This document shows positions 2,118 through 31,399 of a stretch of DNA of 64,000 nt, one piece after another. Made by a program: the position numbers and the translations under genes. The notes under the pieces were generated by a model. The model made no database searches. It had not been told where the DNA came from and saw only the letters and a program-made list of their open reading frames with translations. The stretch is from sequence record MZ779063.1. The stretch is one strand, 5' to 3'. The DNA comes from Staphylococcus phage vB_SauM-UFV_DC4. Numbering within the stretch: position 1 is the first letter of the stretch; each line of letters starts with the position of its first letter.

Positions 2118-2172
2118 TTACTATTTAAATATATATTATATAAATGAAGTTAATTAAAATACAGGAGATGAA

Positions 2173-2539: not shown

Positions 2540-3025
2540 ATGAATTATTTAAAGAATGAAAAAGGGGAGGTCTTTCCAGTCAATGAAGAAGGAATGGAGA
2601 ATATCATATTCTTTCTTCTAGACTACTCACAGAAAAATGATTATAACACAATGAATTTGATTAAAGAGATAAATGATCACGTGATGAAAGGCGAAAATAT
2701 AAGTAATGAATTTATTAATGAAAAAACAAAAGAAACGATATTAACTTTAGGTAAAGTAAAAGGTAATTTAACTAATGAATTAGCTAGAAGTGGTTATATA
2801 GTTAATTTCTCTAGAAATAAAATATCACTATCGATATATGTAAAAAATAATAGTTTTAAATTAGTAAGAATTTCAGATCATAATATTAATAAAAAAATAA
2901 ATAAAAAAGGTGTAATCAGTAATAGATTTGACGGACAATTAGTATGTAAAAATAATCTAGTTAAATCTTCTGATTTGAAAAAGCATGGAATTGATATTAA
3001 TGAAGGAATATATTATTTAGAATAG
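2540..3025 (+). CDS. Hypothetical protein.
   Basis: ORF with RBS taggaga. Confidence 0.45.
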   Translation: MNYLKNEKGEVFPVNEEGMENIIFFLLDYSQKNDYNTMNLIKEINDHVMKGENISNEFINEKTKETILTLGKVKGNLTNELARSGYIVNFSRNKISLSIYVKNNSFKLVRISDHNINKKINKKGVISNRFDGQLVCKNNLVKSSDLKKHGIDINEGIYYLE

Positions 3026-3026
3026 G

Positions 3027-3320
3027 ATGAAACTATATATGAAAAAGATAATAATGTTTTTAGGTATTTTGTTACTAACAACGGTATTGGTCGGTTGTGG
3101 AGAAAGTGTTGATTCAAAAGATAAAAAAGATTCAATCAAAACAGTAACTATTTATAGTAAAGGCGGTAAAGTATTACATCAATATGAAGGAAAAGTTAGT
3201 GCTGAGAGAGTAACGGATAACAAATTTACTAAAATTGATATAGACGGTAAGAAATTAAGAGTTGTAAATGCAGATGTAGTTATTGAAGAAAAAGGTATTG
3301 AGAAATTTGAAACAAAATAA
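3027..3320 (+). CDS. Small secreted lipoprotein (signal peptide with LVGC lipobox); candidate superinfection-exclusion or surface protein.
   Basis: N-terminus MKKIIMFLGILLLTTVLVGCGES has a positive n-region, a hydrophobic core and an L-x-G-C lipobox. Confidence 0.55.
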   Translation: MKLYMKKIIMFLGILLLTTVLVGCGESVDSKDKKDSIKTVTIYSKGGKVLHQYEGKVSAERVTDNKFTKIDIDGKKLRVVNADVVIEEKGIEKFETK

Positions 3321-3382
3321 AGATTAAGTATATATTATAATTATGAAGAAAGATATTATCATATATCTTTCTAATAAAATTA

Positions 3383-3694
3383 ATGGAGGAATTTGTTATG
3401 GCAAAATTAAATGAAGAAGTATTAAGAGACTTTCAAGTAAAAACTGAAATTGATGGAGAATTTGAAGTAATGGAATCTGATGAGCTTGGTGTTGATGAAG
3501 CTTATGAAATTGAATTAATTAAAGAATTGGGATTAGATGTCGATTCAAGTGTATTCTCTTATGCAATATCAGAAAAAGATGATGAAGAAAATACGTATAC
3601 TTTAGAATATAGTCATGAAGGCGTTCTATTAACTATTCATGATATCGATTTTGAAAATGGTATTCATGATACTATTTATAAAAATGTAATTTAA
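3383..3694 (+). CDS. Small acidic hypothetical protein.
   Basis: ORF with RBS ggagga; a terminator hairpin follows. Confidence 0.45.
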   Translation: MEEFVMAKLNEEVLRDFQVKTEIDGEFEVMESDELGVDEAYEIELIKELGLDVDSSVFSYAISEKDDEENTYTLEYSHEGVLLTIHDIDFENGIHDTIYKNVI

Positions 3695-3704
3695 TGATTT
3701 AAGT

Positions 3705-3735
3705 ATAGCTGATATCTTTAACGGATATCAGCTAT
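3705..3735 (+). terminator. Rho-independent terminator hairpin (atagctgatatc/gatatcagctat) followed by a T-run.
   Basis: Perfect 12-bp inverted repeat followed by ttatttttatttttttac. Confidence 0.6.
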
Positions 3736-3777
3736 ATTATTTTTATTTTTTTACTTAAAGGAGATGAAAAGGATAAT

Positions 3778-4389
3778 ATGAATTATTTTGAATTGGAATA
3801 TACAGGTTTAATTAATAATAATAAATTAGATAATCTAGTTCTACACAAACAAGAAAATGAAGAAATTGAATCGGGTGTTTTAAATATGGTTTTATTTAAA
3901 TTGTATCTAAAAGAATTCTATAATGATAATATGGATGATAATGATTTATGTAAGAAACTAAAAATGGAAATAAGAAGTATTCATAGTTATAATAATTCAG
4001 AAATTTATATTAATGAAGACTTTGCTGAAATATATGATGGTATTAATCCGAATAATAATATTAAATCAGGAAAAATAAATAAAGATTATGAATATTTATT
4101 TAAATTTATTAAAGATAATATAAATGAAAAAGATTTAAATAATATACATGTGATTAAATTTACAACATTTGAAATAGAGAAATATAAACCTGTTGTGATT
4201 TTTATAAACTCAGATAAACTTAGAATTAAGACCAATAAATCAATTAGTAGATATACATCAACAAATGAATTTGTATTCTATAATATTTCAAGCGAAAGTT
4301 TATATACATTAATGAAAAATACAAATAGAATAAGAAATATAACGGAAAAAGAATATAAAAAAGAATTAGTTAAAAGGAGTTTTTTATAA
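3778..4389 (+). CDS. Paralog-family protein 1 (C-terminus ...TEKEYKKELVKRSFL).
   Basis: RBS aaggagatg. Its stop overlaps the next start (TAATG). Confidence 0.55.
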   Translation: MNYFELEYTGLINNNKLDNLVLHKQENEEIESGVLNMVLFKLYLKEFYNDNMDDNDLCKKLKMEIRSIHSYNNSEIYINEDFAEIYDGINPNNNIKSGKINKDYEYLFKFIKDNINEKDLNNIHVIKFTTFEIEKYKPVVIFINSDKLRIKTNKSISRYTSTNEFVFYNISSESLYTLMKNTNRIRNITEKEYKKELVKRSFL

Positions 4390-4937
4390 TGTATGAAGTT
4401 AATAAAAAATTTAAATATGCTAAAAGAGATAAAGAATTCACATTATTCCACCATAAATCAAAAGAAAAAATAACTGATTCATTTATAATTAATAATTATA
4501 TTTCATATGTATTATATCAATGCTACGAAAGAACACCAGGAAATGCAGAAGTTTGGTTGGAAATTAATGATATAAATAATATAAAAGGTGATTTCTTATT
4601 TAAATTTATGTTTGACAACAGACCTTCTTTTGGTTCTAATTATTTTCCTAAGTGTAAATTAAATATACAAGATAACAGTGATAATAATATTGTAACTATT
4701 GAATTTAGTGATAAATATAAAAGACATAATTTTATTCTAGAAGAAATATCTAAATTTAATAATGTTCATATTAATTTTTATGAAGAAGTATTATTTACTA
4801 ATGAAGATGAAGAATTCAAGTTATTAAAGAATGTATTTAAAACTGATAACATTAAATATTACCAAAATAAAGATTTAATTAGTTATATTTCAGACAAAGA
4901 AGCTAGAAAAATTTTAGTAAAAGAAAACTTTAAATAG
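4389..4937 (+). CDS. Paralog-family protein 2 (C-terminus ...KEARKILVKENFK).
   Basis: Translationally coupled to the previous ORF. Its N-terminal motif IINNYISYVLYQCY parallels IIESYFDYMFNYY in the next ORF. Confidence 0.55.
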   Translation: MYEVNKKFKYAKRDKEFTLFHHKSKEKITDSFIINNYISYVLYQCYERTPGNAEVWLEINDINNIKGDFLFKFMFDNRPSFGSNYFPKCKLNIQDNSDNNIVTIEFSDKYKRHNFILEEISKFNNVHINFYEEVLFTNEDEEFKLLKNVFKTDNIKYYQNKDLISYISDKEARKILVKENFK

Positions 4938-4953
4938 AATAGGGGCAAATAAA

Positions 4954-5487
4954 TTGAATAAATATTTTAAATTTAAATTAAATAATAAAAGTGATTACGA
5001 TGTATTTAAATTTTCAGGAAATGAAGAAGAAATAAGCGATTCTAAAATTATAGAGTCTTATTTTGATTATATGTTTAATTATTATATAAATGAAGCAATA
5101 CCTGACTCCAGTATGATTAATATTGCTGTATTTACTGAAGGTAAAAGAAAAAGATTATTGAGATTTACTATAGATAAACCACCAATTTATATAAAAGAGC
5201 CAGTTAGTACTTTATTTATGAATGAAAATGATGAAGATAAACAAATTAATTTTAAAGAATTTAACGAAATTAAAAAATTTATACACGAAAAGATTATGGA
5301 ATTGAATAAAGGTGAATTTTATATTTATATTGATTATAATTTTGATTATTCTTATAGAATAGATTACGATGATGTATTTGATAAAATATTATTTAATAAA
5401 AATAATCTAAATCTTTATTCATCATTTATTAAAGAAACAGATGAAAATGAATATAAAAATTATCTAGTAAGAGAGAATTTTAAATAA
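4954..5487 (+). CDS. Paralog-family protein 3 (C-terminus ...NEYKNYLVRENFK), TTG start.
   Basis: TTG start with an upstream aggggc RBS; shares the family N- and C-terminal motifs. Confidence 0.5.
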   Translation: MNKYFKFKLNNKSDYDVFKFSGNEEEISDSKIIESYFDYMFNYYINEAIPDSSMINIAVFTEGKRKRLLRFTIDKPPIYIKEPVSTLFMNENDEDKQINFKEFNEIKKFIHEKIMELNKGEFYIYIDYNFDYSYRIDYDDVFDKILFNKNNLNLYSSFIKETDENEYKNYLVRENFK

Positions 5488-5504
5488 GGAAGTGAGACAG
5501 ATAA

Positions 5505-6281
5505 ATGGAATATGTTATGATAAATAAATTATTAACAAAAAATGATTCATCTGAATTAAAAATAAACATGGTTAAACTATATAAAGAGGAAGAAGACTTT
5601 TTCAATTTCTTTTTAAACTTTATTATAGAATATAATTCATATTATATAGGAAATTATAAATACTTTTATAGTATAGATTCATTATCAGATTATAATTCAG
5701 ATTATCAAATAAATGGAAATCCTTATGTGCCATTTGAGGAAGGGATAAAGGTAAATGAAGTCATTCATATTTATAAAAATAAATTATTTAGGAATATAAG
5801 TAAAGATATTGAAAATAGAATAACCGTACTTTATGTAGAAGACAAAGAAGACGATATTTTCTATTATATATTAATATCTAATTACTTTAATAAAAAATTT
5901 AAAAAAGAATATAAAGAAGAACTTCCCGATAAAGAAAAATTGTTAGCTAGACTTATAGTAAGATCCTTTCTAAATGAAAAAATTTTATTAGATTCACATT
6001 CAGAATTTTTAGTTATTAAAGATAAAGAAAAATTGAATAATTTAATTAATAATTTAATGAAAAATCAAAAATACAAAATTTTAAACTTTGATTTCTTAAG
6101 TAATAGGGAATTAAAATATAATGGAGTAATATTTAATACAAATTTATATGATAATAAACTAATCCTGAAGTATTTAAAAGGAATAGACTACAAAGATATT
6201 ATTAATAAAGATAAAGAAAAAATTACGTTTATAAATGAAAAAGGATATAAAAAACTAGCAGTGAAAGAATCATTTAAATAA
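5505..6281 (+). CDS. Paralog-family protein 4 (C-terminus ...KGYKKLAVKESFK).
   Basis: RBS aaggaag; carries the family C-terminal tail. Confidence 0.55.
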   Translation: MEYVMINKLLTKNDSSELKINMVKLYKEEEDFFNFFLNFIIEYNSYYIGNYKYFYSIDSLSDYNSDYQINGNPYVPFEEGIKVNEVIHIYKNKLFRNISKDIENRITVLYVEDKEDDIFYYILISNYFNKKFKKEYKEELPDKEKLLARLIVRSFLNEKILLDSHSEFLVIKDKEKLNNLINNLMKNQKYKILNFDFLSNRELKYNGVIFNTNLYDNKLILKYLKGIDYKDIINKDKEKITFINEKGYKKLAVKESFK

Positions 6282-6359
6282 ATAATAAATATTCTCATCC
6301 ATTCATTATATAATAACTTTTAATTATATAATAATTTTTAGAATGGATGAGATGCTTTT

Positions 6360-7019
6360 ATGAGTAATTATTTATATCGTTTTAACAAAGAGAATGTAAA
6401 TATCTTCTATCATAAAAGGACTAATAATGGTCATAAAATGTTATTTAATAATAGTAATGATAAAGATAGATCTATATACTTAATAAATACTGATGAAGAA
6501 ATCAATAATATGGAACTAGTATCTAAATATATTGCTGGAAAAGTATTTGAAATACTAAACCAAGAAAATATGAAAATAGTACATATGGATTTCTTTAATA
6601 GTAAATTAGAATTCTTTATAAGTAGATCATCCAAGAATAAATATATAATGAATATGTATTTTAGTTTAAAAAGTTATAATGATCTAATAGAAAATGAAAA
6701 AGAATTTATAGATAGTGTTAATGAGCTTAATTTAGACTTTTTAAAATCAGTTTCTTTAGATCAAGACAATAATCATGTATTAGATATGACATTAATATTT
6801 TTAATAGATAAAAATAAAATAGATGAATTTATTAAAAATCTATTTTACATTAATTATGTAAAGATAATAGAATTTATAATAGATACTATATCAGTATATG
6901 CAGATGATTACAAGAAATTTAATGAAGAAATAAATATTCTTTTGGATCATAGAAATTTTGTAGAGGAAATAACATATAAAGAATATAAAAAGATAATGAC
7001 AAAAGAGATGTTTATTTAA
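6360..7019 (+). CDS. Paralog-family protein 5 (C-terminus ...YKEYKKIMTKEMFI).
   Basis: ORF with the family C-terminal tail. Confidence 0.5.
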   Translation: MSNYLYRFNKENVNIFYHKRTNNGHKMLFNNSNDKDRSIYLINTDEEINNMELVSKYIAGKVFEILNQENMKIVHMDFFNSKLEFFISRSSKNKYIMNMYFSLKSYNDLIENEKEFIDSVNELNLDFLKSVSLDQDNNHVLDMTLIFLIDKNKIDEFIKNLFYINYVKIIEFIIDTISVYADDYKKFNEEINILLDHRNFVEEITYKEYKKIMTKEMFI

Positions 7020-7032
7020 GGAGTAATTAACT

Positions 7033-7743
7033 ATGAAGATTTCAGCCAATAAAGAATTATTAGGAAAGAAAGTTATACCTTTAGGTTTTAAACAACTTAA
7101 TAACTTATATAAAGATCATGATTATGTATATTTAAGAATTCCTGAAATATTTAATGTATTTGATAAGTATCAATTTAAAGATGATAAATTTGTATATCTT
7201 AAAACAGAAATAAAACCCAGTACTATTGTAGATTTAATAGATTCTTTATCAAGTGGTTTTAATTGGTTAATAAATGAATATATTTCTAATGATATACTAA
7301 ATATACATTATATAAAGAAAAATTTATTAGACATTTCCAATAGTGAATATAAAACTCTAGAAGAAACAAGATCTCAGTTAGATTTAGAATTAGAATTCAT
7401 AAGTAGTAATGAAAAACAAAGAAAGCAATCTAATATTTTAATAAAGGATATTCATAAAGAAATAAATTATATAAGGAATGAATACACAAAAGTATTCACT
7501 CTTAAGAAAAGTAAAACCAGAAATAATAAACCAATAAAAATAAAAATTAGAAATTTATATGATGAAGATCCAATATCTATATTAAAAATAATATTAGACT
7601 TAGGAGAAGAATATTGTATGAATAGTACTATATTTAACGCATTTACTTATTCATTAATGTTAACAAATAATTTAGATTTCATAGACGAAAAAGAATTTCA
7701 GGATATAGTTAAGAAAGAGAAAGTGAAAAATACTTTCATTTAA
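7033..7743 (+). CDS. Paralog-family protein 6 (C-terminus ...KEKVKNTFI).
   Basis: RBS aaggag; a degenerate family tail; a terminator follows. Confidence 0.5.
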   Translation: MKISANKELLGKKVIPLGFKQLNNLYKDHDYVYLRIPEIFNVFDKYQFKDDKFVYLKTEIKPSTIVDLIDSLSSGFNWLINEYISNDILNIHYIKKNLLDISNSEYKTLEETRSQLDLELEFISSNEKQRKQSNILIKDIHKEINYIRNEYTKVFTLKKSKTRNNKPIKIKIRNLYDEDPISILKIILDLGEEYCMNSTIFNAFTYSLMLTNNLDFIDEKEFQDIVKKEKVKNTFI

Positions 7744-7748
7744 AACAT

Positions 7749-7805
7749 TATTCATATAGTTTGAGGAAATTTTCCTTAAGCTATATGAATTATTTTATTT
7801 TTTTT
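7749..7805 (+). terminator. Nested-palindrome terminator (attcatatag ... ctatatgaat with an inner AGGAAA/TTTCCT) plus a T-run.
   Basis: A 10-bp perfect inverted repeat flanks an inner 6-bp inverted repeat, followed by tattttattttttttc. Confidence 0.55.
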
Positions 7806-7939
7806 CTAAAAATATAAACTAATTTATATTAATAATTTTTATAATGTATCATTCACTTAGTCGCAAATATTTATTTATTTTAAGAACATAAATTTTATAT
7901 CAAATAATATAGAATTTTTAAAAAGGAGAATTTAATTTT

Positions 7940-8503
7940 ATGGAAAAATATGATAAATTAACTGAAGAATTAGAAGCTTTATATGAGCAATCTCAAGAAG
8001 AAGCTCTAGAAGAACAGTTCGAAAGCATTATCGAATCAACTGATGAAGATAAAGCAGAAGAAGTTGAAGATAAAGATTCTAAAGAAGATTCAGACGAAGA
8101 AGAAACATCTGTTGAAGAACAATTTAACAGTATCTTAGAATCAGAAGATGAAGAATCTGATGAGGAAGAAGATGACGAAGATTCAGAAGAAGAACCGGTT
8201 GAAGAATCTGATGAGGAAGATTCAGAAGACGATTCAGAAGATGATGAAGATTCTTTAGAAGAAGAATTAAATCGTTTATTTGAAGAAAATGAAGACCCAG
8301 AAATGGATGTCGAAAAGCAAACTACAAAAGCTAATGACATGAACTCAAAAAAATCATCTGACTCTACTGAACATCCTGAAGAAGATGTGAAAAAAATCAC
8401 TTCAGAAGATGAAGACGAAGAAGAAGATGCTGAAGATGACGAAGAAGAATCTACTAATGAAGATGAATCATTAGAAGAATCATTAGATCGTATCTTTGGT
8501 TAA
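7940..8503 (+). CDS. Hyper-acidic Asp/Glu/Ser-rich protein (about 45% D+E) with internal EEQF-S-I-ES-DE repeats; candidate DNA-mimic, anti-restriction or scaffold-like protein.
   Basis: RBS aaaggag. The translation carries the repeated motifs EEQFESIIESTDED, EEQFNSILESEDEE, EEELNRLFEENEDPE and EESLDRIFG. Confidence 0.6.
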   Translation: MEKYDKLTEELEALYEQSQEEALEEQFESIIESTDEDKAEEVEDKDSKEDSDEEETSVEEQFNSILESEDEESDEEEDDEDSEEEPVEESDEEDSEDDSEDDEDSLEEELNRLFEENEDPEMDVEKQTTKANDMNSKKSSDSTEHPEEDVKKITSEDEDEEEDAEDDEEESTNEDESLEESLDRIFG

Positions 8504-8524
8504 TTATTAATTAATCTTTAAAAT

Positions 8525-8557
8525 ATCCCCTAACCTTATTAATTTAAGGTTAGGGGA
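8525..8557. terminator. Bidirectional terminator between convergent genes (atcccctaacctt / aaggttaggggat).
   Basis: Perfect 13-bp inverted repeat with A/T runs on both sides. Confidence 0.65.
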
Positions 8558-8572
8558 TTAATATTGTATTTT

Positions 8573-9031
8573 TTATCTGAAATAATTAGTATTATCAGTC
8601 ATTTTTCTTCCAAAAGCATCTAGTCCATCTAATGGATTAACTTTATCTCCAGTTGTTTTAAAATCATCTCCACCATAAGTGCCGCTAAAATTTGTATCTA
8701 CGCCTTTAGATAATTCTTCACTCATTTTATTTAAGTGTCTTACTCTTTCAACTTTTCTCTGATAATAGTCTTCTGCTTCTTGTTGAGATTTTAATCTATT
8801 TTCATCAATAGTTTCGTTATCTTTTAATTTAGTTACTGGAGTAAAACCATCCATAACTACATAAAATTTATCAATTTGATCCTGATAAATAAAAGGTATT
8901 TTAGTTTTTAAATGTAAAGTAGTTGGTTCATCTTCATACTGTAATGTCTCATATTCAAGTATATTACCTTCTTTATCGACAGTGACAGATATATCCATCA
9001 TAATTTCTTCTTTTTTCTTTTCTTCTGACAA
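8573..9031 (-). CDS. Hypothetical protein (tail-fibre module).
   Basis: ORF downstream of the 998-aa fibre gene. Confidence 0.45.
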   Translation of the reverse strand: MSEEKKKEEIMMDISVTVDKEGNILEYETLQYEDEPTTLHLKTKIPFIYQDQIDKFYVVMDGFTPVTKLKDNETIDENRLKSQQEAEDYYQRKVERVRHLNKMSEELSKGVDTNFSGTYGGDDFKTTGDKVNPLDGLDAFGRKMTDNTNYFR

Positions 9032-9055: not shown

Positions 9056-12052
9056 TTAGTTTCTTCCATAAATATAAGAGTTTAGGAACCAAGCATTTCC
9101 TTTTTGACCTGGTTTAACACGAGCTCGTATAGCTACTGAAGCTATAGATTGTTGTGGTATTCCTAAATCAACAATAATCTCTTTAAATTTAGTTTTAGTA
9201 ACACTAGTAGAAGTGTCTTTAGGTATTGATACAGTTTTATCAAAAATTACACCATTCTGTTCGTTAAAAGAGTCTACTTTAATATCTATACCACATTGTG
9301 GAGTAGCATACCATATACCAATGTGTAACCATCTAGTTTCATGTTGACCGTATAATGTCATAGCACGTCTAAAGTAGCTACCTGTAGTCTTATCACTAAA
9401 CATAAATGCATTACCGACATTTTTAAATCTAGGAGTACCATTAGACATTAAATCTTGCACACCAGGTTCTGAACGTACATAAGCTGTAGTGAATCGTGGC
9501 ATACCATTGTATACTAAATAACCACCATCAGGGCGTTTGATAGTGATACCGCCTTTAACTTCTCCCATAGCATCTAACATAGTTTGAACAACTATATTTT
9601 TAGACATTAAATTAGTAATAGCAGCTTCTTTAATAGTAGCTCTACCATTAGAAATTATTACATCACCATCATTAATATCAACCATCTTAGATTTTAATTT
9701 AATACTATTAGGATCAATATCAAAAGAAGATAATTTATCATTAGATGAAGATGACATAGTAATACCATCAGCTAATAGAGATAATGCAGAACCCATTTTT
9801 TCTATTTTAGTTTTATCAGCATTGTAAGTTTCTTTAGTAACACTTAGAGCGATATTATTTTCTGTTTGACTAATTCTACTTTCCATATTAGTAATTCTAG
9901 CATTACTATCTTTAATAGACGGTTGCCAAGCAGTAGATTTATTACCTTCTTCAACTTTTAATCCTTCAATATCAACAGACATTGGGAAAGTTCCATTTTT
10001 ATTAATAATCATATTAATTAATGTGTCAGTTGTAAATGAATCATTAGGAATAAATACTACTTCTATTAATGTTAAAGCAGAAGTATCATCAAACGTAATA
10101 TTACGTGAATCTTGACCTTTAGCAACACCATTAACAAAAGTATTAGTTATAGTTGAATTAGGTATACTAATATCAACATTAGTTAATGTACCAGTTTTCT
10201 TTTCTAAGTTAAAGCTTAATATGTGTTCACGTCTATTTCTAACTTTATCTAATTTAAATTTAATACCTTGACCGTTAGCAGTTAAAGCTGTATTAAGTTC
10301 TCCGTATTCTAAATAATTAGTTTTAGTTAAAGTTACAGAACCAATTGGTGTAATATTAGCAATGCTAATTAAGTTCATACCGCCAACTGTAATTTTACCG
10401 GCTTCTGTAACAGCATAACCATTAGAAATACTGTCAATAGATTTTTGAATAGCATCTTTAATATTCGATTGAGCTTCATTATATCTCAAGTAGTTAGTAT
10501 TAAATTGAGCTATTTCTTCTTGAGTGGCTACACCGTCAATAATAGTATTAGTGATATCTTGTATTAGTATATTATATTTCTCATTAAATAAATCATATTT
10601 ATTTTTTAAATCTGTTTTTACTGAATTAGCCATCATTTTATTAGGATAAAGTGTATTAAAGATTTTATCTATTTCAGCTTTATCTTTATCAATAACATTT
10701 TTCTGTTTATCAATAGCAATTCTTTCAGCATTAGATATAATACCATCTTTGAAAGCTTCAGTAACTGTATCACCTAAACCTACAGCATTCTTTTCGATAT
10801 TAGTTATTTTACCATTAATAGTTTTATTATAGTTTTCTAACATATTATCATAATCTTCAGGTGCAGCTGTCCAGTCAGAAGACACACTACCTCGTTCAAC
10901 TTTAACTCTAGCAATATCAAATGTACCACTTAATCCATTAAGGTCAGTATCTACTCCAAGAAGCAATTTAGTATTATTTCTTCCAGTTAGTGTTTGTTTA
11001 TATACAAATGAATATCTATGCCATTCTTCATCAATATCTAAATACTTTTCAGCGATTGGTGTAGAATAATTACCAGAAGGATCAATGAAGTAACAATAAT
11101 CAAGTCTATTAAATGTATCTGATCTAAAATCAAATGAAATAGTATAAGTCTCATTATATTCTAGTTTAAAACCATTATAACTTTGAGCTCCTACTTGTCC
11201 TTCAATACCTTCAGTATTAATTGTAAAATAACTTTTACCGTTACTGTCTTGTCCAAAAGTTAAAGCATTTGGGTTTGATGAATTTAAAGCATCCGGTTTT
11301 AACAACCAATTACCTGAAACAGCTAAAGAATTTTCTAATAAGTTTTTACCACCAATAACAATACCGTCAATTTCAGATTTAGAAACTGTTTGTTCTATTA
11401 AGTCTGCAAATTGAGATATCTGACTTTCAAATTCAGTTACTTTATTATTAACCGTATCTATATCAGCTCTAGTAACTGTATCTTGTAGAACTCTAGCTGT
11501 TTGTTCTCTAAATGATTCTAATTTAGTAATACTATCATTAATTTCATTAAGAGTGTAATCAGTAGCTATACTCTTAATGGACTCTGCAGTTTGTTCTACT
11601 TTAGTACTTAAATATTGTATAGATGATTCATATTTATTAACTTTAGACATTGCTATTGATAGGGACTCTTCATTAGATGAAACTCTTCCATTTAAAGAAT
11701 CTAGATTACCTTTAATATCAGAATCCCATCCACCTTCAGCAACGCTATCAATATAGTCAATACTTAGTTTTTGGTATTTTCTTAATTCAGTTTTTAATGT
11801 ATCAAGTGTAACATAGTTAGATAAATCTAAATCAATATCGTGACTACCATCTAAATTTCTTAATTTTTCTATTAAATTATCATTTTCTTTATCTAAAGAA
11901 TCAATACTTGTATTTAAGACATTAATTCTATTTTTATTATCTTCTGACAGATTTTTAATGCTATCTTGTTCTTGTAATAAAGAATTGAATTTCGATTTAA
12001 TAGAATTTATTTCTTCATTTATTTGAAGAAGATTTTTTTCTTTATCTTCCAT
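9056..12052 (-). CDS. Tail fibre or receptor-binding protein (998 aa). It has an N-terminal coiled coil, then one lectin-like module ending in SDWTAAPEDY, then C-terminal beta-rich domains.
   Basis: Heptad-rich N-terminus. The G-K-N-L-L-E-N-S ... W-T-A-A-P-E-D module is homologous to the four modules of the 2662-aa protein. Confidence 0.6.
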   Translation of the reverse strand: MEDKEKNLLQINEEINSIKSKFNSLLQEQDSIKNLSEDNKNRINVLNTSIDSLDKENDNLIEKLRNLDGSHDIDLDLSNYVTLDTLKTELRKYQKLSIDYIDSVAEGGWDSDIKGNLDSLNGRVSSNEESLSIAMSKVNKYESSIQYLSTKVEQTAESIKSIATDYTLNEINDSITKLESFREQTARVLQDTVTRADIDTVNNKVTEFESQISQFADLIEQTVSKSEIDGIVIGGKNLLENSLAVSGNWLLKPDALNSSNPNALTFGQDSNGKSYFTINTEGIEGQVGAQSYNGFKLEYNETYTISFDFRSDTFNRLDYCYFIDPSGNYSTPIAEKYLDIDEEWHRYSFVYKQTLTGRNNTKLLLGVDTDLNGLSGTFDIARVKVERGSVSSDWTAAPEDYDNMLENYNKTINGKITNIEKNAVGLGDTVTEAFKDGIISNAERIAIDKQKNVIDKDKAEIDKIFNTLYPNKMMANSVKTDLKNKYDLFNEKYNILIQDITNTIIDGVATQEEIAQFNTNYLRYNEAQSNIKDAIQKSIDSISNGYAVTEAGKITVGGMNLISIANITPIGSVTLTKTNYLEYGELNTALTANGQGIKFKLDKVRNRREHILSFNLEKKTGTLTNVDISIPNSTITNTFVNGVAKGQDSRNITFDDTSALTLIEVVFIPNDSFTTDTLINMIINKNGTFPMSVDIEGLKVEEGNKSTAWQPSIKDSNARITNMESRISQTENNIALSVTKETYNADKTKIEKMGSALSLLADGITMSSSSNDKLSSFDIDPNSIKLKSKMVDINDGDVIISNGRATIKEAAITNLMSKNIVVQTMLDAMGEVKGGITIKRPDGGYLVYNGMPRFTTAYVRSEPGVQDLMSNGTPRFKNVGNAFMFSDKTTGSYFRRAMTLYGQHETRWLHIGIWYATPQCGIDIKVDSFNEQNGVIFDKTVSIPKDTSTSVTKTKFKEIIVDLGIPQQSIASVAIRARVKPGQKGNAWFLNSYIYGRN

Positions 12053-24574: not shown

Positions 24575-24691
24575 TTTTAGAAAACTCCTTTTAAATTGAT
24601 ATTTATAATATAAATTAAGTTATTATGGCATTTTAAAAAATTACTCAACATTTTATTTATTATGAAACTAATAGAAAGTGGGTAGAAATAT

Positions 24692-25954
24692 ATGCCTCAT
24701 TTAGGAAAAGAAAATGGTTATTCCATGTGTACTGCATCACCTTCATTATCTAGTGTTATATCAGGTGTACAATCATTCATGTGGACATATTTTAAATCAA
24801 TGTTCCCTAGTAATTTTTTTGCTTCAACTTATGTAAATACTTCTCTTAATTCAAATTCACTAAAAGATATGAAGGAACGTAAAAAAGGTTTTCCTCATTT
24901 ATCAATGAATACACAATTTGAATTGGGTGATGGTTTTATGTCAGGTTTACCTATGTGGCATAAGACTGATAGATTTGTAATGAAAAATCTTAAAAGAAAT
25001 TATAGATTGATATTTGAAGACGATACAAGAGGAATTAGAATATATACAGTTCCTCAAAGATATAAGATAGTATTTAATTACGGTATACTATTACAAACAG
25101 AAATGGGAGCTTGGAACGTTCTTAATCACATTAATCAAACGTTTGAAAATGGTGGATATAATTATGCTAATGAAATAAGAATACCAACAAAATTACCAGA
25201 AATATTTATTGTTAATATATGTAGAAAACTAGGTTTAGATATTAATAACAATAAAGATAGAATGCAATTAAATGATTATATGATGACAAATGGTTTAGGT
25301 CCAATTACTAATAAAAAAGATTTGTCTACTGGTAAAGAAAAGTATACTTATGATTATACTACTAATATATTATTAAATTATCCTGATTTAACTAATTATG
25401 AAAAAGAAGTAACTAATCTAATAAATAAATCAGCTTCAGTTAGATATGCGATATCTGCTGAATTATGGGTACCTGGTAGTTATATATTAGAAATTGAAGA
25501 TGATTTCAATATTCAAAGAGAAATTGATTCACTTTCAGATGATGTTTTACAATTCGACATTGCTATTTTACAAGATATGATTCCTAAGGAAAATGAAAGA
25601 GGAATGAAATTATTATTAGAAAGAAACTTTAATACTGAAATGAATGTTAAATTTGATTCAACTCAGATTGAAGAAATATTAGATAAAGATGTTATAAATT
25701 CAATTAAAGAACTTAATAAGATTAATGGGGACATTCAAAAAATCGTAGAATTCAAATTGTTTAAAAATAATAAACCTATGAGTAAAGATGAATATTTCGT
25801 TGATTATGATACATTTGAATTAATTGTAAAAGAACCTGAAGATAATAAGGTTCACACACTTGTAATGTATGCGGATACACGTAAGATTAATATGATAAAT
25901 GAATTAATAAATCAAGGAAGAAAAAAAGATTTATACAAAATGGACATATTTTAG
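24692..25954 (+). CDS. Hypothetical 420-aa protein. It is a lone + strand gene between minus-strand units.
   Basis: ORF with RBS gtgggtag; no recognisable motif. Confidence 0.45.
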   Translation: MPHLGKENGYSMCTASPSLSSVISGVQSFMWTYFKSMFPSNFFASTYVNTSLNSNSLKDMKERKKGFPHLSMNTQFELGDGFMSGLPMWHKTDRFVMKNLKRNYRLIFEDDTRGIRIYTVPQRYKIVFNYGILLQTEMGAWNVLNHINQTFENGGYNYANEIRIPTKLPEIFIVNICRKLGLDINNNKDRMQLNDYMMTNGLGPITNKKDLSTGKEKYTYDYTTNILLNYPDLTNYEKEVTNLINKSASVRYAISAELWVPGSYILEIEDDFNIQREIDSLSDDVLQFDIAILQDMIPKENERGMKLLLERNFNTEMNVKFDSTQIEEILDKDVINSIKELNKINGDIQKIVEFKLFKNNKPMSKDEYFVDYDTFELIVKEPEDNKVHTLVMYADTRKINMINELINQGRKKDLYKMDIF

Positions 25955-26013
25955 AAAAAAAAATCAAAATATTAGAGGTAACTATCAAATTAATGATAGT
26001 TACCTCAATTTTA

Positions 26014-26820
26014 TTATTTTACATTAGTTCTGTATTCAAGAATAGTTTTTACTAAAAGCATATTAGCATTTAATTCTTTAGAAGTTCCTTCAGCTTCTTC
26101 AGCTTTAAGTTTACCTACTTGTTCTAAAGACATCATTTCCATTGGATTAATATTTTTAGGAATTTTACCTGAATTAAGTTTAATAACTTCGCTAGCTTGC
26201 ATAGCTTTAATAGATTCATTTAAAAATTCATTAATGACTGAATCTGAAAAGCTTTTAATAACTTTGTTATCTTCTTTTTTAGTGATATCATTACCTTTAA
26301 TTAAGTCTGCTCTGTTATAATATACAAATAAATCAATATAAGTTACTAAGATTATATTGTATATTTCTTGGAAGTTTAAATTAGTGCCCATATTTTCATC
26401 AGTGTAATTCAACATTAATGCAAATACTCTTTCACTAATATTACTTTGTCCTTCTGGAAGAAATTCATCAAAACCTACACTTCTAGACATTGATAAGAAG
26501 TCCATAATATTTCTTGCAAAGTTTTCTTCACTGTTTAATTCATTTTCATCAGTAAAGAATTTAACAAAATCAGAATATGATAGACCAGTAATATCATCTG
26601 ATTTTCTTCTAATCATTTTCATACTATAAAAATCTCTAAATGTTTTACTATCTCCAGTTGAACCTAATTTATCTTCTAAGATTTCTAATTCTTTTCTGTT
26701 GGATTCTTCTTTCATTTCTTTCATTAATACATTTGAAACATCCTCGTTAATTCTTTCTAAATCATTGTTAAATAATTCAATTGCTTGGTTTAATTCTTCC
26801 ATTATCCATTTCATCTCCAT
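26014..26820 (-). CDS. Hypothetical protein.
   Basis: ORF only. Confidence 0.4.
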   Translation of the reverse strand: MEMKWIMEELNQAIELFNNDLERINEDVSNVLMKEMKEESNRKELEILEDKLGSTGDSKTFRDFYSMKMIRRKSDDITGLSYSDFVKFFTDENELNSEENFARNIMDFLSMSRSVGFDEFLPEGQSNISERVFALMLNYTDENMGTNLNFQEIYNIILVTYIDLFVYYNRADLIKGNDITKKEDNKVIKSFSDSVINEFLNESIKAMQASEVIKLNSGKIPKNINPMEMMSLEQVGKLKAEEAEGTSKELNANMLLVKTILEYRTNVK

Positions 26821-26901
26821 TTATAAAAATTATTTAAGATTATTTAATTACCATTAATCTCATTTATATAATATATATTTAAATAATGTTTATAATTTTA
26901 T

Positions 26902-27555
26902 TTATATATCTGAAGCTTCTAATAATTCATTATACTGTTCTATTTGATGATCTAACATGTAATCTTTATAATACGAAACAAATTCATTTACTTTACCAAA
27001 TATTGAAGATAATGGAATGATAATTTTACCTGCATGAGCTAATTGATGATTTGTTTTGGATAGTAATACTAAACCTACTTTATTATCGAAATGTAATTTC
27101 ATAACTCTTTCTGCTATATCTATTGATGTGAATTGTTCATCTTCCATTATAGCTCTATTAACTACTATTTCTACAATCTCATATAATGTAAAAGGAAAGT
27201 GATGATATTCCATTGTAACCATGTCTTCTGTTAAATTTGACATTGTTATATCATTTTTTAGATTGTATTCTTCTTTTAATATTGATAAATACTTTTTATA
27301 TTCATTTGATCTTCTTACTAATCCTTCTACATTCTTAATAAATTTCTTTAAACTATTTTCTGATTCTATTTCAAAGTATAAACTTGATATTTGAAATTTA
27401 CTTTTTTTATTTACTAATGTTGTATTATTATTTGAATCTTTCTTGATTAGTATATTATTAATTCTATTATTTTTATTTAATTTAACTTTACTACTTGAAA
27501 ATTTCTTATTATTAAATTTTATATCTACATTTTTATTACTACTCATTTTATTCAA
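26902..27555 (-). CDS. Hypothetical protein with an Asn/Lys-rich N-terminus.
   Basis: ORF with RBS aaggaattg on the minus strand. Confidence 0.4.
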   Translation of the reverse strand: MNKMSSNKNVDIKFNNKKFSSSKVKLNKNNRINNILIKKDSNNNTTLVNKKSKFQISSLYFEIESENSLKKFIKNVEGLVRRSNEYKKYLSILKEEYNLKNDITMSNLTEDMVTMEYHHFPFTLYEIVEIVVNRAIMEDEQFTSIDIAERVMKLHFDNKVGLVLLSKTNHQLAHAGKIIIPLSSIFGKVNEFVSYYKDYMLDHQIEQYNELLEASDI

Positions 27556-28013
27556 TTCCTTTTTATTAATTAAAAATTAATTAATTTATTATATTTATAT
27601 TCCTTATTTATTAAAAATTCTTTAATTAAAAATATATTTATTAAAAATTTATTAATAATATTTATATTAATTAAAATTTAATAATTAAAAATAAATAAAC
27701 TACCCCCTAAATCCCCCTTCTTGTAAAACAAATTCCAAACTATATATTAAATTATTAGCTCAGAAAATTAAAAATTTTTACTAAATAATATATCTGTTAC
27801 AAAATGTATTAATCTAATACAGATATATTAATTCTTTTTTATAAGTATAATTATATAATTATTTCAATCATTGGTATGTTTATTTTTGAATTGAATAGAG
27901 AACATATTAAGTTAATATAGATTTTTAAATTAAAAATATTATAGAAAATATACAGAGATATATAACAACCTTTTATTAAATATACAAAGAGAGCGAGGAT
28001 TAAATGAGATATA
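27556..28013. promoter_or_regulatory. A 458-bp AT-rich divergent intergenic region. It has about 6 copies of a TTAATTAAAAAT-like iteron, a CCCCCTAAATCCCCC island and a 10-bp inverted-repeat operator-like site (atatatctgt N21 acagatatat). It is a candidate divergent promoter or replication-origin region.
   Basis: Direct repeats were counted by eye at 27575-27695. The inverted repeat is at 27789-27829. Confidence 0.45.
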
Positions 28014-30557
28014 ATGGCTATAGAATTTAATGATTTTAATAGATTCAGTAAAGATGATTTAAGAAAATACAATCCTCTCTATTTTTATAAAGCATTTACT
28101 GAAGAAGATATAGAAAATTTAGATGATGTTATTAAATATTGTCAAGGTCTAATTATTAAAGATCAGTCAATGGCAGATAAATTAGAATCAAATGACTCAA
28201 TGATGGAATCTGATTTATATATAAGAGCTAAAGATGATACGCTCGATGATTACTATTCAGTTTTCGATAGAGATAGTATATTAAGAACGTATAAAGAAAA
28301 AAATCCATACTATGGTAAATTAAGAAATTTATATGATATTGATCCATACGATTCAAGAACGACTAGCGATTTTCAAATAATAAAAGCACTTAATAAAACT
28401 TTAGATAATAAAGAAGAATCTATATTATTGGAAAGTTATACAGAATCAGTTGAATATTTTAAAAAAGTAACTCATACTAGAGCGTTTAATAATCAAATAT
28501 ATTACAGAGAAATGTTTTATATGTATCTAATTAATGCAACTCTACATAGATATATTAATAAAACTATGTATAGAATATTCGATGTTGATAGATATACAAG
28601 GAGAGATCTTAAAAATGCATTTATATCTAATGGTTTGGATTACTTTGATGAGTTCCCACTTGAATATCAAAGAAGAACTTACAAAAGATTAAATGATTTA
28701 ATTAGAAATAAAGGCACTAATGAAATATTTCCTATAATTGAAGAAATATTCTCTATTAATTCTATTGATATTAATAAATATTATCTAGCTAAGCATCCGA
28801 ATGATTTGAAATTTTATAAAACTAATGTAAATGATAATTTCAATCCTTATAAAAATAACCAATATAGCTACAATGAAATTGTCGATCTTGATCCATATTG
28901 GAGAAATACTAAAGAAGAAGTTATGGATAAAGCATTTAACGTTATACAAACTAAATATTTGTCTACTGATGCTGTTATAGATATAATTAATAACAGTAAA
29001 TCTTTATCATTCTTATACAGTTTAATTAACTTAATGAAAGAAGATAAAAATATTATCGAAGATGACAGTTTCAATATGACTAATACAAGAATTAGTTCTA
29101 GAAAATTTAATGTCTTTGACGGAATTGTTACACTTAATACACTTGTCATAAATTATATTAAATGGAATGATAACATTAAGAATGATAAAAATATGAATAT
29201 ATATGCGTATAATTTTAATTCAGATATAAAAGATACTGTAGATGATATTCGTAATTATATTTATTCTAGACAATTTGATAAATCAGACTATACTGATTTT
29301 GCTAGAGAATTAAATTTCCTTAATATTAAGAAATTTAAAAATAGAAATACATTAAGCTATGAAGATATCATAAATGAATATGAATCATCTGACTTAGCTC
29401 AAAGACAATTTAAATTCATCTCTGAAATGTTAACTGGTGAAAATGGATCAACTCAATTAGAATATTATATTGAAAATGATTTAATTATTGATGGTATGCG
29501 TTATTTATGGACTCAGATATCAAAACCAGAAAGAAACTTCTTATTCAAAAATATTTCTTATTATGAAAACTTTATGAAGATATATAAGAAATTCTTAAAT
29601 GTAATGGTAAGAGATGGAAGAATTGATAGAGAAGACGTATATAAAATAATGATTGAAGACGAATCAATTGATAAAGAATTAAAAGATTTTGTTAAAGTTA
29701 TGAATGTTAGATTTTTAAATGAATCTTACGATAGATATAAAGACAATAAGAATGCTGAAAATATTGAAAATATAGTTACTGCAGTCAGAAAATCTATAGA
29801 CTATTCAATTAAGAATAATCAATATACTTCTAAAAAACAAATATCTAGATATCCTGCATTAAAATCATATATTTCAGATATATTAGTTTATGATGATTCT
29901 GATAAAGATTTAATAAATATTTATGATATTATTAATATGTATAAGCATAATGAAAAATTCCGTAAAGAACTAGAAGAATTAATATATAATGCGAATGATC
30001 CTCATTTAAGAGAAAAATTTATTACATTGCATAAACAACTATTTATCAATAATTCTAGTAATGATGTATTTAATGGATTTAAGACCTATTCAGATTATCT
30101 TAAATTTAAAGAACCTGATTTGTATTATTATACTATTGTAGAATCAGAAATATATGATGAAGATACATTTGATAGAGAAACTATCTTTAGAGAAAGAATT
30201 TTTGAATTAGTTAGTAGTATTGATAATCATTTAAATTTAAAAGAACAGTATTTCACTAATAGTAATTTTGTAGGTATAGTTAATTTTATCAGAGATTATA
30301 TTACTATTTTAATTACATTATTTAAATCTTATTCAACTGATTTAATTTATACTAGTCTATTATTTAAATTAGATGATAAATTTGAAAATAGTATACATTT
30401 AATAGACGAAGCCAATGTTAAATATAGTGGAACTTCTAAAAAAGTAGATAAAATCAATACACTTGACAATAAAAATATCATTGATAAAATTAATAGAAAA
30501 GAAAGTATTGAGACTAAAGATGAATTAAAAATCTCAATAATTAAGAAGGGAGATTAA
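28014..30557 (+). CDS. Large hypothetical structural protein (847 aa); possibly the portal or another head/baseplate component.
   Basis: Long ORF at the head of the + strand unit preceding the lysis and head genes; no motif recognised. Confidence 0.3.
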   Translation: MAIEFNDFNRFSKDDLRKYNPLYFYKAFTEEDIENLDDVIKYCQGLIIKDQSMADKLESNDSMMESDLYIRAKDDTLDDYYSVFDRDSILRTYKEKNPYYGKLRNLYDIDPYDSRTTSDFQIIKALNKTLDNKEESILLESYTESVEYFKKVTHTRAFNNQIYYREMFYMYLINATLHRYINKTMYRIFDVDRYTRRDLKNAFISNGLDYFDEFPLEYQRRTYKRLNDLIRNKGTNEIFPIIEEIFSINSIDINKYYLAKHPNDLKFYKTNVNDNFNPYKNNQYSYNEIVDLDPYWRNTKEEVMDKAFNVIQTKYLSTDAVIDIINNSKSLSFLYSLINLMKEDKNIIEDDSFNMTNTRISSRKFNVFDGIVTLNTLVINYIKWNDNIKNDKNMNIYAYNFNSDIKDTVDDIRNYIYSRQFDKSDYTDFARELNFLNIKKFKNRNTLSYEDIINEYESSDLAQRQFKFISEMLTGENGSTQLEYYIENDLIIDGMRYLWTQISKPERNFLFKNISYYENFMKIYKKFLNVMVRDGRIDREDVYKIMIEDESIDKELKDFVKVMNVRFLNESYDRYKDNKNAENIENIVTAVRKSIDYSIKNNQYTSKKQISRYPALKSYISDILVYDDSDKDLINIYDIINMYKHNEKFRKELEELIYNANDPHLREKFITLHKQLFINNSSNDVFNGFKTYSDYLKFKEPDLYYYTIVESEIYDEDTFDRETIFRERIFELVSSIDNHLNLKEQYFTNSNFVGIVNFIRDYITILITLFKSYSTDLIYTSLLFKLDDKFENSIHLIDEANVKYSGTSKKVDKINTLDNKNIIDKINRKESIETKDELKISIIKKGD

Positions 30558-30562
30558 AAAGC

Positions 30563-31399
30563 TTGTTTAATTTTGATAGATTTTCAAGAAGACTTGTTGA
30601 AAGTAACGCTATGGAACAAGAAAAAATAGATGAGATAAGCTCAAGAGTGGAAACAAGAGACTCTAACGCTATTAATATCAAATCAGATTTTAAAGAAGAT
30701 ATAGGAAATTACATTAAAGGTATTGTTAAATTTTCTAATCCTAGAACAGGTGAACTAATACATCAAGAAGAAAATTTAGTTTTAATGAGAACTCGTGTTT
30801 GGTTATTAGAAAAATTATTTGGTAAAGGTATACCTTCAAACTATAATGCAGATAGTACCCCTGATCGTACAATTTGTTTATTCTCGATTGGGTCAGGTGG
30901 AGCAGATGTTAACAATGCAGCTTTTTCTCCTTATACAGTTAAGTATTCGGATCAAAAATTAAATAGACCAATTCCATTTGTAGTAGAAAATCCAGATAAA
31001 GAAAATTCTGATTTAACTGCAAATAATCCTAGTATGATTGAAGAATTATCTGATGAACAGAGAAGAAAATATTATCTTCCTGAAGATAAACAAGATGGAA
31101 CTACTAGTTTCTATGGTAAACGTTTTACTAATGCGACTAAAGAAAATCCTCTTGGAGATTCAAAAGGATGGATTATTGATAATGAAGATGGTTCAGTAGC
31201 ATTTTCATTAAAAATGTCAGTAGAACCAGATGAAGCTAGAGGTTCTATCGTAAATGAATTAGGTTTATGGTTAGCTAAATATAATGAAACTGAAAATAAA
31301 TTTGATGGTACTGAATTAGCTACAAGACTTACATTTGATAGTCGTTCTTTAAAGAACTTATCAGATGGATTAGATATAGAATATATTATTTATATTTAA
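30563..31399 (+). CDS. Hypothetical protein (278 aa).
   Basis: ORF immediately after the 847-aa gene. Confidence 0.4.
   Translation: MFNFDRFSRRLVESNAMEQEKIDEISSRVETRDSNAINIKSDFKEDIGNYIKGIVKFSNPRTGELIHQEENLVLMRTRVWLLEKLFGKGIPSNYNADSTPDRTICLFSIGSGGADVNNAAFSPYTVKYSDQKLNRPIPFVVENPDKENSDLTANNPSMIEELSDEQRRKYYLPEDKQDGTTSFYGKRFTNATKENPLGDSKGWIIDNEDGSVAFSLKMSVEPDEARGSIVNELGLWLAKYNETENKFDGTELATRLTFDSRSLKNLSDGLDIEYIIYI

Follow-up and report, generated by a model that had tools for sequence, protein, structure and literature searches.

Divergent proteins of Staphylococcus jumbo phages end in a common tail, a possible docking element

The window analyzed in this work is a stretch of 64,000 nucleotides from Staphylococcus phage vB_SauM-UFV_DC4 (DC4; record MZ779063.1). 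Near its start, seven open reading frames (ORFs), six of them forming a tandem array at positions 3778-7743 and one lying upstream at 1169-1627, encode proteins that have highly divergent bodies and end in nearly the same peptide of ~20 residues. An earlier note, made from the letters of this sequence, had proposed a family with a fixed extreme C-terminal peptide and highly divergent bodies, and this family proved to be real; however, its extent was underestimated in that note, which described a local array of six genes plus one, whereas the family comprises ~39-45 genes genome-wide and is spread over a whole clade of phages. It consists of lineage-specific, expanded jumbo-phage genes that are arranged in tandem same-strand arrays and occur in many copies within one phage lineage. 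We tentatively infer that the tail of these proteins is a shared docking element, a reading that falls somewhat short of an even chance.

Genome-wide counts were made on phage S6 (LC680885.1; circular, 267,055 bp), to which positions 3000-9000 of the window align at 99.9% identity; position 1 of the window corresponds to position 239,164 of the S6 record. DC4 is related to S6 and carries identical proteins. Both phages belong to a clade of Staphylococcus PBS1/AR9-like jumbo phages, and the related genomes of this clade are PALS_2, MarsHill, Madawaska, LY01, AH12, vB_StaM_PB50 (PB50), Machias, and vB_StaM_SA1 (SA1).

The C-terminal tail

The tail is ~20 residues long and finishes exactly at the C-terminus. 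Numbered from the C-terminus, its consensus is [FY](-20)-x-[ED]-[IL]-[TS]-[DE]-E-K(-13)-E-[YIVF](-11)-K(-10)-x-[YI]-[LK]-V(-6)-K-x-[NT]-F(-2)-[KRI]-stop; in shorter form, the motif reads [FY]-x-E-[IL]-T-[DE]-E-K-E-[YI]-K-x-[YI]-L-V-K-x-N-F-K-stop. Phenylalanine occupies position -2 in 33 of 34 S6 members; the proteins end in F-K in 24 of the 34 cases and otherwise in F-I, F-R, F-L or F-S, the preceding residues being charged. Of the 115 ORFs in the window that reach 50 amino acids (aa) or more, a regular expression for the tail matches exactly seven, namely the ORFs introduced above, all of which are present on the + strand with the C-termini that the earlier note had quoted.

For cross-validation, a hidden Markov model (HMM) of the tail was trained on 27 S6 members, all of them outside the window. 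With this HMM the seven window tails score 16.5-36.9 bits, whereas 2,100 shuffles of the same tails reach a maximum of 12.5 bits, with the 99th percentile at 8.7. Because shuffled tails score below the real ones, the similarity is positional rather than a matter of composition rich in lysine and glutamate, an alternative that the earlier note had named.

The upstream gene, p1169 (1169-1627, +; 152 aa; S6_2460 in the S6 record), ends in ...LTELTEKEYKNSIVVKNFK, encoded at 1565-1624, and scores 21.8 bits with the tail HMM; its orthologs in five relatives keep the tail. The array starts with p3778 (3778-4389, +; 203 aa; S6_2520; tail ...IRNITEKEYKKELVKRSFL, 24.3 bits), whose orthologs likewise keep the tail. 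It continues with p4389 (4389-4937, +; 182 aa; S6_2530; tail ...ISYISDKEARKILVKENFK, 20.7 bits), its paralog p4954 (4954-5487, +; 177 aa; S6_2540; tail ...IKETDENEYKNYLVRENFK), and p5505 (5505-6281, +; 258 aa; S6_2550; tail ...ITFINEKGYKKLAVKESFK, 22.6 bits). The next gene, p6360 (6360-7019, +; 219 aa; S6_2560; tail ...VEEITYKEYKKIMTKEMFI, 16.5 bits), has the best conserved body of the array, with 75-76% identity to SA1, AH12, and Machias. The array is completed by p7033 (7033-7743, +; 236 aa; S6_2570; tail ...FIDEKEFQDIVKKEKVKNTFI, 16.9 bits), the tail of which carries a four-residue insertion. All seven genes, S6_2460 and S6_2520-2570, are recorded as 'hypothetical protein' in S6. The six genes are tightly packed, and the array is syntenic in all relatives, where it contains five or six genes depending on the lineage. 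Translational coupling had been suggested for several of these ORFs; the TAATG stop/start overlap at position 4389 is indeed present, but this is the single overlapping pair, and the remaining junctions are separated by 13-78 nucleotides.

The constraint on the tail acts on the protein, not on the DNA. At conserved residues synonymous codons vary freely: valine at -6 is encoded by GTT, GTA, and GTG in 15, 7, and 5 cases, respectively, and leucine at -7 by TTA, CTA, or TTG. Replacements within the tail are conservative (Y/I/V/F, K/R), and the sequences 3' of the stop codons are unrelated among the members. In four phage comparisons, the synonymous substitution rate (dS) of the tail is equal to or higher than that of the body, while the ratio of nonsynonymous to synonymous rates (dN/dS) is lower in the tail than in the body in all four (0.19-0.30 vs 0.28-0.54).

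It is hence next to inconceivable that a nucleic-acid element, for instance a regulatory RNA or a recombination site serving gene shuffling, underlies the shared 3' end, or that this end is a K/E-rich compositional artefact of an AT-rich genome. The region has ~20-25% G+C, so codons for lysine, glutamate, and asparagine are abundant, which would favor an artefact; however, the free variation of synonymous codons and the tail dS, the far lower scores of shuffled tails, the unconserved downstream sequences, and the finding that the motif occurs neither on the - strand nor internally all speak against this explanation. A compositional artefact is ruled out by the shuffles together with the cross-validation, and a DNA-level repeat or recombination element by the codon variation and dS.

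Extent, distribution, and divergence of the family

The whole S6 genome was scanned as six-frame ORFs. The tail is carried by 34 ORFs at 7.4-29.5 bits, all on the + strand and all with the tail 0-2 residues from the stop codon; the best internal match in S6 scores 6.2 bits, and on the - strand the motif is absent. The cross-validated profile adds 5 members, which brings the number to ~39. An all-versus-all comparison of the C-terminal 16-mers of 321 S6 ORFs, which used no prior motif, yielded 447 high-scoring pairs, with 45 ORFs falling into a single cluster; the corresponding pairs numbered 7 when internal segments were compared and 25 with N-termini. Thus, the family accounts for ~39-45 S6 genes, or ~14% of the 273 annotated features. 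Its members are clustered at 46.8-47.9, 56.4-63.3, 66.3-72.0, 74.0-81.0, 179.4, 211-214, 218.5-221.9, and 240.3-246.9 kb of the S6 record. They are soluble proteins of 62-418 aa without hydrophobic segments, and most of them are acidic (median isoelectric point 5.5) and bear a basic tail. The most divergent relative, SA1, the host of which is S. lentus, has ~26 members by these rules and lacks internal matches.

Within the collections searched, the tail is confined to this clade of phages, metagenomic fragments of it apart. A tblastn search of 50,697 GenBank phage records with the tail consensus (E <= 10), a search of phage genomes that had been proposed in the earlier note, matched just the 8 Staphylococcus jumbo phages. 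A degenerate DNA pattern of the tail, which has 8 matches in S6, gave 21 scattered single chance matches and no real tails in IMG/VR; in one genome per GTDB species it gave at least 120 matches, and the 80 loci scored among the matches listed were all due to chance, the best one having 13 bits. Comparison of the HMMER tail profile with 1.84 billion representative proteins resulted in seven matches at E <= 0.001, six of which belong to the ortholog groups of the window genes; five of them end at the C-terminus. The sixth match is the metagenomic protein P0010, whose gene call ignores the p6360 stop codon and runs on into p7033, so that its internal tail is an annotation artefact. The seventh, P0027, is an unrelated repeat protein. 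Full-length searches of 5.8 billion proteins retrieved nothing but members of the clade and fragments of these from metagenomes.

The window proteins match no known family, structural or other; that they might belong to a known structural one had been allowed for in the earlier note. In Pfam the gathering score was never reached (best E 0.013), the best E in PHROGs was 0.036, and no match was found in PDB. In Bacillus phage AR9, homologs of the family members were not detectable, whereas the neighboring AAA ATPase and metallopeptidase do have AR9 homologs. A comparable tail expansion is also absent from AR9, which has just a five-gene array with another shared C-terminus. The family is not mentioned in the MarsHill/Madawaska/Machias, DC4, and PALS2 genome papers, nor in the jumbo-phage survey of Iyer et al.; within the literature searched, it is undescribed.

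The bodies of the family members diverge quickly. Between reciprocal best hits of S6 and SA1, the median identity is 50.8% for the family and 80.8% for non-family genes (p = 4e-5); for size-matched non-family genes it is 71.6% (p = 0.002 vs the family). A reciprocal SA1 ortholog is lacking for 19 of the 39 S6 members. The tail is retained in all orthologs that could be found, and its consensus does not differ between the S. aureus phages and the S. lentus phage SA1, which fits a conserved partner. The term 'diversifying', used for the family before, thus holds for its fast divergence in comparison with other genes but not for the mode of selection, which is purifying rather than positive overall; the body dN/dS of 0.28-0.54 corresponds to relaxed or mixed selection.

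Within the window, relatedness of the bodies is recognizable for one pair. Tail-less sequences were compared by hhalign using ortholog profiles from six phages, with seven unrelated neighboring genes as controls: p4389 and p4954 match with a probability of 95.5% (E 1.4e-8), and all other pairs of the window family score within the range of the control pairs. Genome-wide, tail-less pairwise BLAST and phmmer connect just a few sub-clusters; together with hhalign, they show homology for p4389/p4954, 73971/76346/77144, 218524/218989/219958, 219462/220437, and 66335/67545. Beyond these sub-clusters, cryptic homology of the bodies found no support in pairwise BLAST, phmmer, and the controlled profile-profile comparison. 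The genes p4389 and p4954 are co-orthologous to one gene in AH12 and Machias and therefore arose by a relatively recent duplication; in SA1, the corresponding gene is found by p4389 only. Outside the window, the genes at 66335-66817 and 67545-68036 of the S6 record are near-identical paralogs (E 1e-54) with degenerate tails (..KEVKDFKIRNLFK and ..KEVKDLKVRNHFR), and their near-identity indicates that duplication is still occurring in the family.

An N-proximal aromatic block had also been described as a common feature of the bodies. It is solid in the p4389/p4954 subfamily, in the alignment of which I33, I34, Y37, and Y40 are invariant (I34, Y37, and Y40 in a second alignment), but family-wide it dwindles to a weak tendency toward an aromatic hairpin, K-Y-[YF]-K-Phi-x3-G-x-Phi-x-Phi. 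The distribution of scores for this N-terminal motif is shifted by the Mann-Whitney test relative to non-family ORFs (p = 1.5e-8) and to internal segments (p = 0.006); for individual proteins the motif has no significance.

Expression context, predicted structure, and possible role of the tail

The motif TTAAATATATATTATAAaaATGA occurs in S6 in 22 copies on the + strand and 4 on the - strand, and is essentially the consensus of the annotated early promoters of AR9, AAATATATATTATaata.TGA. The same motif lies 5' of 29 MarsHill genes and was ascribed to the virion RNA polymerase (Korn et al., bioRxiv 10.1101/2020.12.14.422802). Most family clusters are located downstream of AR9-type early-promoter motifs, and several begin 65-80 nucleotides past one. 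This context is consistent with early genes of a host-takeover type, as far as promoter-like motifs can tell.

For the six-gene array, which departs in part from this arrangement, the nearest upstream promoter candidate is the AR9-type early-promoter-like motif TAAGTATATATTATAATTATGAAGA at 3325-3349 (+); a second one, TAAATATATATTATATAAATGAAGT, is found at 2126-2150 (+) in the same + strand block. Between the motif at 3325-3349 and the array, which starts 430 nucleotides downstream, are a small acidic ORF (3383-3694) and a hairpin with a T-run at 3702-3738 (+). This strong, intrinsic-terminator-like element has a 16-pair stem, adjoins the ribosome-binding site of the array, and forms its 5' boundary; terminators are annotated at the equivalent position in Madawaska and Machias. 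The ribosome-binding site and the start codon of the array lie within ~40 nucleotides of the hairpin, leaving no room for a promoter. Transcription of the array would hence need read-through of the hairpin or an unrecognized promoter, and the element at 3702-3738 may be an attenuator or a processing site rather than a full terminator. The early-promoter motif has its core, TATATTAT, repeated within the 3' arm and T-run of this element. The 3' boundary of the array is another strong hairpin with a T-run (7750-7790, +; 19-pair stem), directly after the last gene, and a terminator is annotated at the equivalent position in Madawaska.

An AlphaFold2 model of p4389, based on 13 subfamily sequences, shows an alpha+beta protein with a mean predicted local distance difference test score (pLDDT) of 75.8 and a predicted template modeling score of 0.73; independently predicted BFVD models of p4389 orthologs agree with it at template modeling scores of 0.75-0.86. 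In the model, the tail forms a strand (residues 164-167), then a helix (169-180; pLDDT ~64), and two loose final residues (~47). The AlphaFold model of p6360 (pLDDT 63) has its tail helix at residues 206-216, after a low-confidence linker. The prediction for the tail is thus a short strand attached to the body and, after it, a terminal helix that is exposed and rich in lysine; the lower confidence of this helix and the p6360 linker fit a semi-detached element. Fold searches of BFVD with the p4389 and p6360 models retrieved their own orthologs only and never other family members; therefore they give no positive structural support for one common fold.

Taken together, these data suggest the following scenario: (i) repeated tandem duplication would have expanded the family, as is shown for several sub-clusters including p4389/p4954 and supposed beyond them, (ii) the bodies would then have diverged until most of them lost recognizable kinship, (iii) the terminal helix, which ends in Phe-Lys, would serve as a common docking element that connects each member with one and the same conserved partner, be it a phage protein or a staphylococcal protein of high conservation, and (iv) the variable bodies would provide differing specificities or activities, for example, different host targets in early takeover. 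We favor docking because the tail is fixed to the C-terminus within two residues in ~65 proteins from two distant phages, because it ends in a near-invariant phenylalanine followed by a charged residue, because it rides on proteins of 62-418 aa, and because it is modeled as a semi-detached terminal helix. A bolder version, in which the lineage has invented a peptide 'address' or docking system with one receptor reading the 20-residue C-terminal tag on ~40 otherwise unrelated, probably early proteins, is less likely than not but has a real chance; such a receptor could be a phage hub protein, a protease, a chaperonin, or an essential staphylococcal machine.

Several observations weigh against docking. 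The p4389 model assigns the beginning of the tail module to the beta-sheet of the body. The p4389 and p6360 models are alike in the order of their secondary-structure elements, which, judged by order alone, fits cryptic common folds. With the weak N-terminal hairpin seen in many members, the conserved ends may be there simply to complete a fold common to all. As for expression, no early-promoter motif belongs to the six-gene array itself, which is directly behind a terminator-like hairpin, so that the timing and level at which the array is expressed are uncertain; the family genes in general are probably early, to judge from motif similarity only.

The structural observations lead to another explanation, according to which the members are divergent paralogs of one fold, with the N-terminal hairpin and the C-terminal strand-helix packing together for stability, and have differing functions and no common partner. 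The tandem same-strand arrays with some demonstrably paralogous sub-clusters, the location of strand 164-167 of p4389 within the fold, where an N-terminal strand is also predicted, the weak common aromatic motif at the N-terminus, and the similar order of elements in the two models are all in its favor. However, members of 75 and 92 aa, within a range of 62-418 aa, are too small for much of a common domain; the BFVD searches gave no match across paralogs; the tail helix is below the core in model confidence; and folding seldom fixes an exact distance from the C-terminus or a near-invariant second-to-last phenylalanine followed by a charged last residue. We regard a purely structural role as the main rival reading, less likely than docking but deserving serious consideration.

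A strictly C-terminal signal common to many probably early proteins might also be a timing signal or degron, by which a protease would clear the early takeover proteins together. The protease could be the phage AAA ATPase and metallopeptidase (S6_0430/0440), a pair conserved in AR9 whose genes shortly precede the first family cluster, or the host Clp or FtsH. This explanation seems improbable, as AR9 has the ATPase/protease pair and yet lacks the tail family, and the charged tail with its Phe-Lys end is unlike non-polar degrons of the ssrA type. ClpXP degrons similar to ssrA have a non-polar extreme C-terminus of the ..LAA or ..VAA type; identity with them was rejected, given that the S6 tails end in F-K, F-I, F-R, F-L or F-S after charged residues. 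The bacterial sliding-clamp-binding motif, a QL[SD]LF-like pentapeptide that is often C-terminal, was rejected as well, the tail consensus ..L-V-K-x-N-F-K having neither the glutamine nor the Leu-Phe pair.

The presence of one short terminal peptide on many otherwise different proteins is also what would be expected of an address tag, either for loading into the capsid and injection with the DNA, or for targeting to a phage-built compartment or assembly, and these phages do package some proteins, among them the virion RNA polymerase. However, genes behind early promoters are unlikely to encode virion components, and UFVDC4_00212-00217, the DC4 equivalents of the six array genes, are absent from the 15 DC4 virion proteins detected by liquid chromatography-mass spectrometry, none of which has the size of a family member; this proteome is shallow, and the evidence from it is weak. 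We consider an address tag of this kind very improbable.

Neighboring genes and comparison with known systems

Upstream of the array, a 97-aa ORF at 3027-3320 (+), which AH12 and Machias also have, carries a lipoprotein-type signal peptide (..LLLTTVLVGCGES..). In PALS_2, MarsHill, Madawaska, and LY01, DNA matching the window starts just past this gene; the last ~60 nucleotides of the gene are 82% identical to Listeria phages (P70, LP-114, and others). Directly 3' of the array, the ORF at 7940-8503 (+) encodes a 187-aa extremely acidic protein rich in aspartate and glutamate, the C-terminus of which (..SLEE[ST]LDRIFG) is kept in all relatives. The gene at 9056-12052 (-) encodes a 998-aa protein annotated as a tail fiber in Madawaska, Machias, and DC4, and marks the switch to a structural block on the opposite strand right after the array region.

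In the S. aureus jumbo phage clade, ~14% of the genes belong to one unannotated family, all examined members of which (in the window, among the orthologs, and in the annotation of S6) are listed as 'hypothetical protein'; the phages concerned are candidates for therapy and are capable of generalized transduction. The invariant terminal peptide on fast-evolving bodies offers a direct experimental handle on the hub where these probably early proteins would converge. Should the tail prove portable, it might serve to deliver or co-localize proteins in infected staphylococci. Even if its role is only structural, divergence beyond recognition inside one genome is striking, and an anchored comparison of protein termini can reveal families missed by ordinary homology searches.

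A family of similar size, a zinc-ribbon expansion of ~35 copies, was described in Bacillus phage G (Iyer et al. 2021, PMC7824862). Like the S6 family, the zinc ribbons are present in dozens of copies within one phage lineage, form tandem arrays, and have functions that are only inferred. In phage G, however, a whole small domain is conserved and recognizable, whereas in the S6 family the conservation is limited to ~20 terminal residues of proteins that have no known domain and bodies that are mutually unrecognizable.

The closest arrangement in AR9, the nearest relative that is well studied, is the five-gene paralog array gp030/031/034/035/036 (24579-30840 of the AR9 stretch, KU878088.1). Like the S6 family, it consists of tandem paralogs that have a conserved C-terminus of their own, NDPKFKNSLKRVKxYEAxxILExL. 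It lies behind an early promoter and directly follows the genes for the AAA ATPase gp028 and the zincin/vWA protease gp029, and the S6 homologs of this pair precede the first S6 tail cluster. The AR9 array differs in having only five members and another C-terminal sequence, and homology between it and the S6 family members was not detected. Elsewhere in AR9, the DnaB-like helicase gp007 (3583-5268 of the AR9 stretch) and gp161 (record positions 133928-134998) both end in ..D[SG]GI[PN]F, which resembles the acidic C-terminal tips of single-stranded-DNA-binding (SSB) proteins.

Outside phages, the ankyrin-repeat/PRANC (F-box-like) families of poxviruses combine a fast-evolving variable N-terminal part with a conserved C-terminal element that plugs into one host machine. 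PRANC is a folded domain of 40-50 residues with a known partner, Skp1, and the variable part is a recognizable repeat fold; the likeness to the S6 tail is one of logic, with no relationship in sequence. Short terminal peptides on otherwise unrelated proteins, for which the position at the end is essential, also include the encapsulin cargo-loading peptides, the T4 capsid-targeting sequence, and the C-terminal signals of type IV secretion effectors. Cargo peptides of the encapsulin or capsid-targeting type bind the inner face of an HK97-fold shell protein, and the proteins tagged by them are inside the particle. The S6 tail differs from these terminal peptides in its sequence motif, and family members were not detected in the shallow DC4 virion proteome. 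If a docking system does exist in these phages, the effector bodies would evolve quickly while one connection stays fixed, and the system would be a phage counterpart of the poxvirus PRANC proteins or of secretion and cargo signals. The family takes its place among the lineage-specific expansions of large phages and is set apart from them by the conservation of a terminal peptide only.

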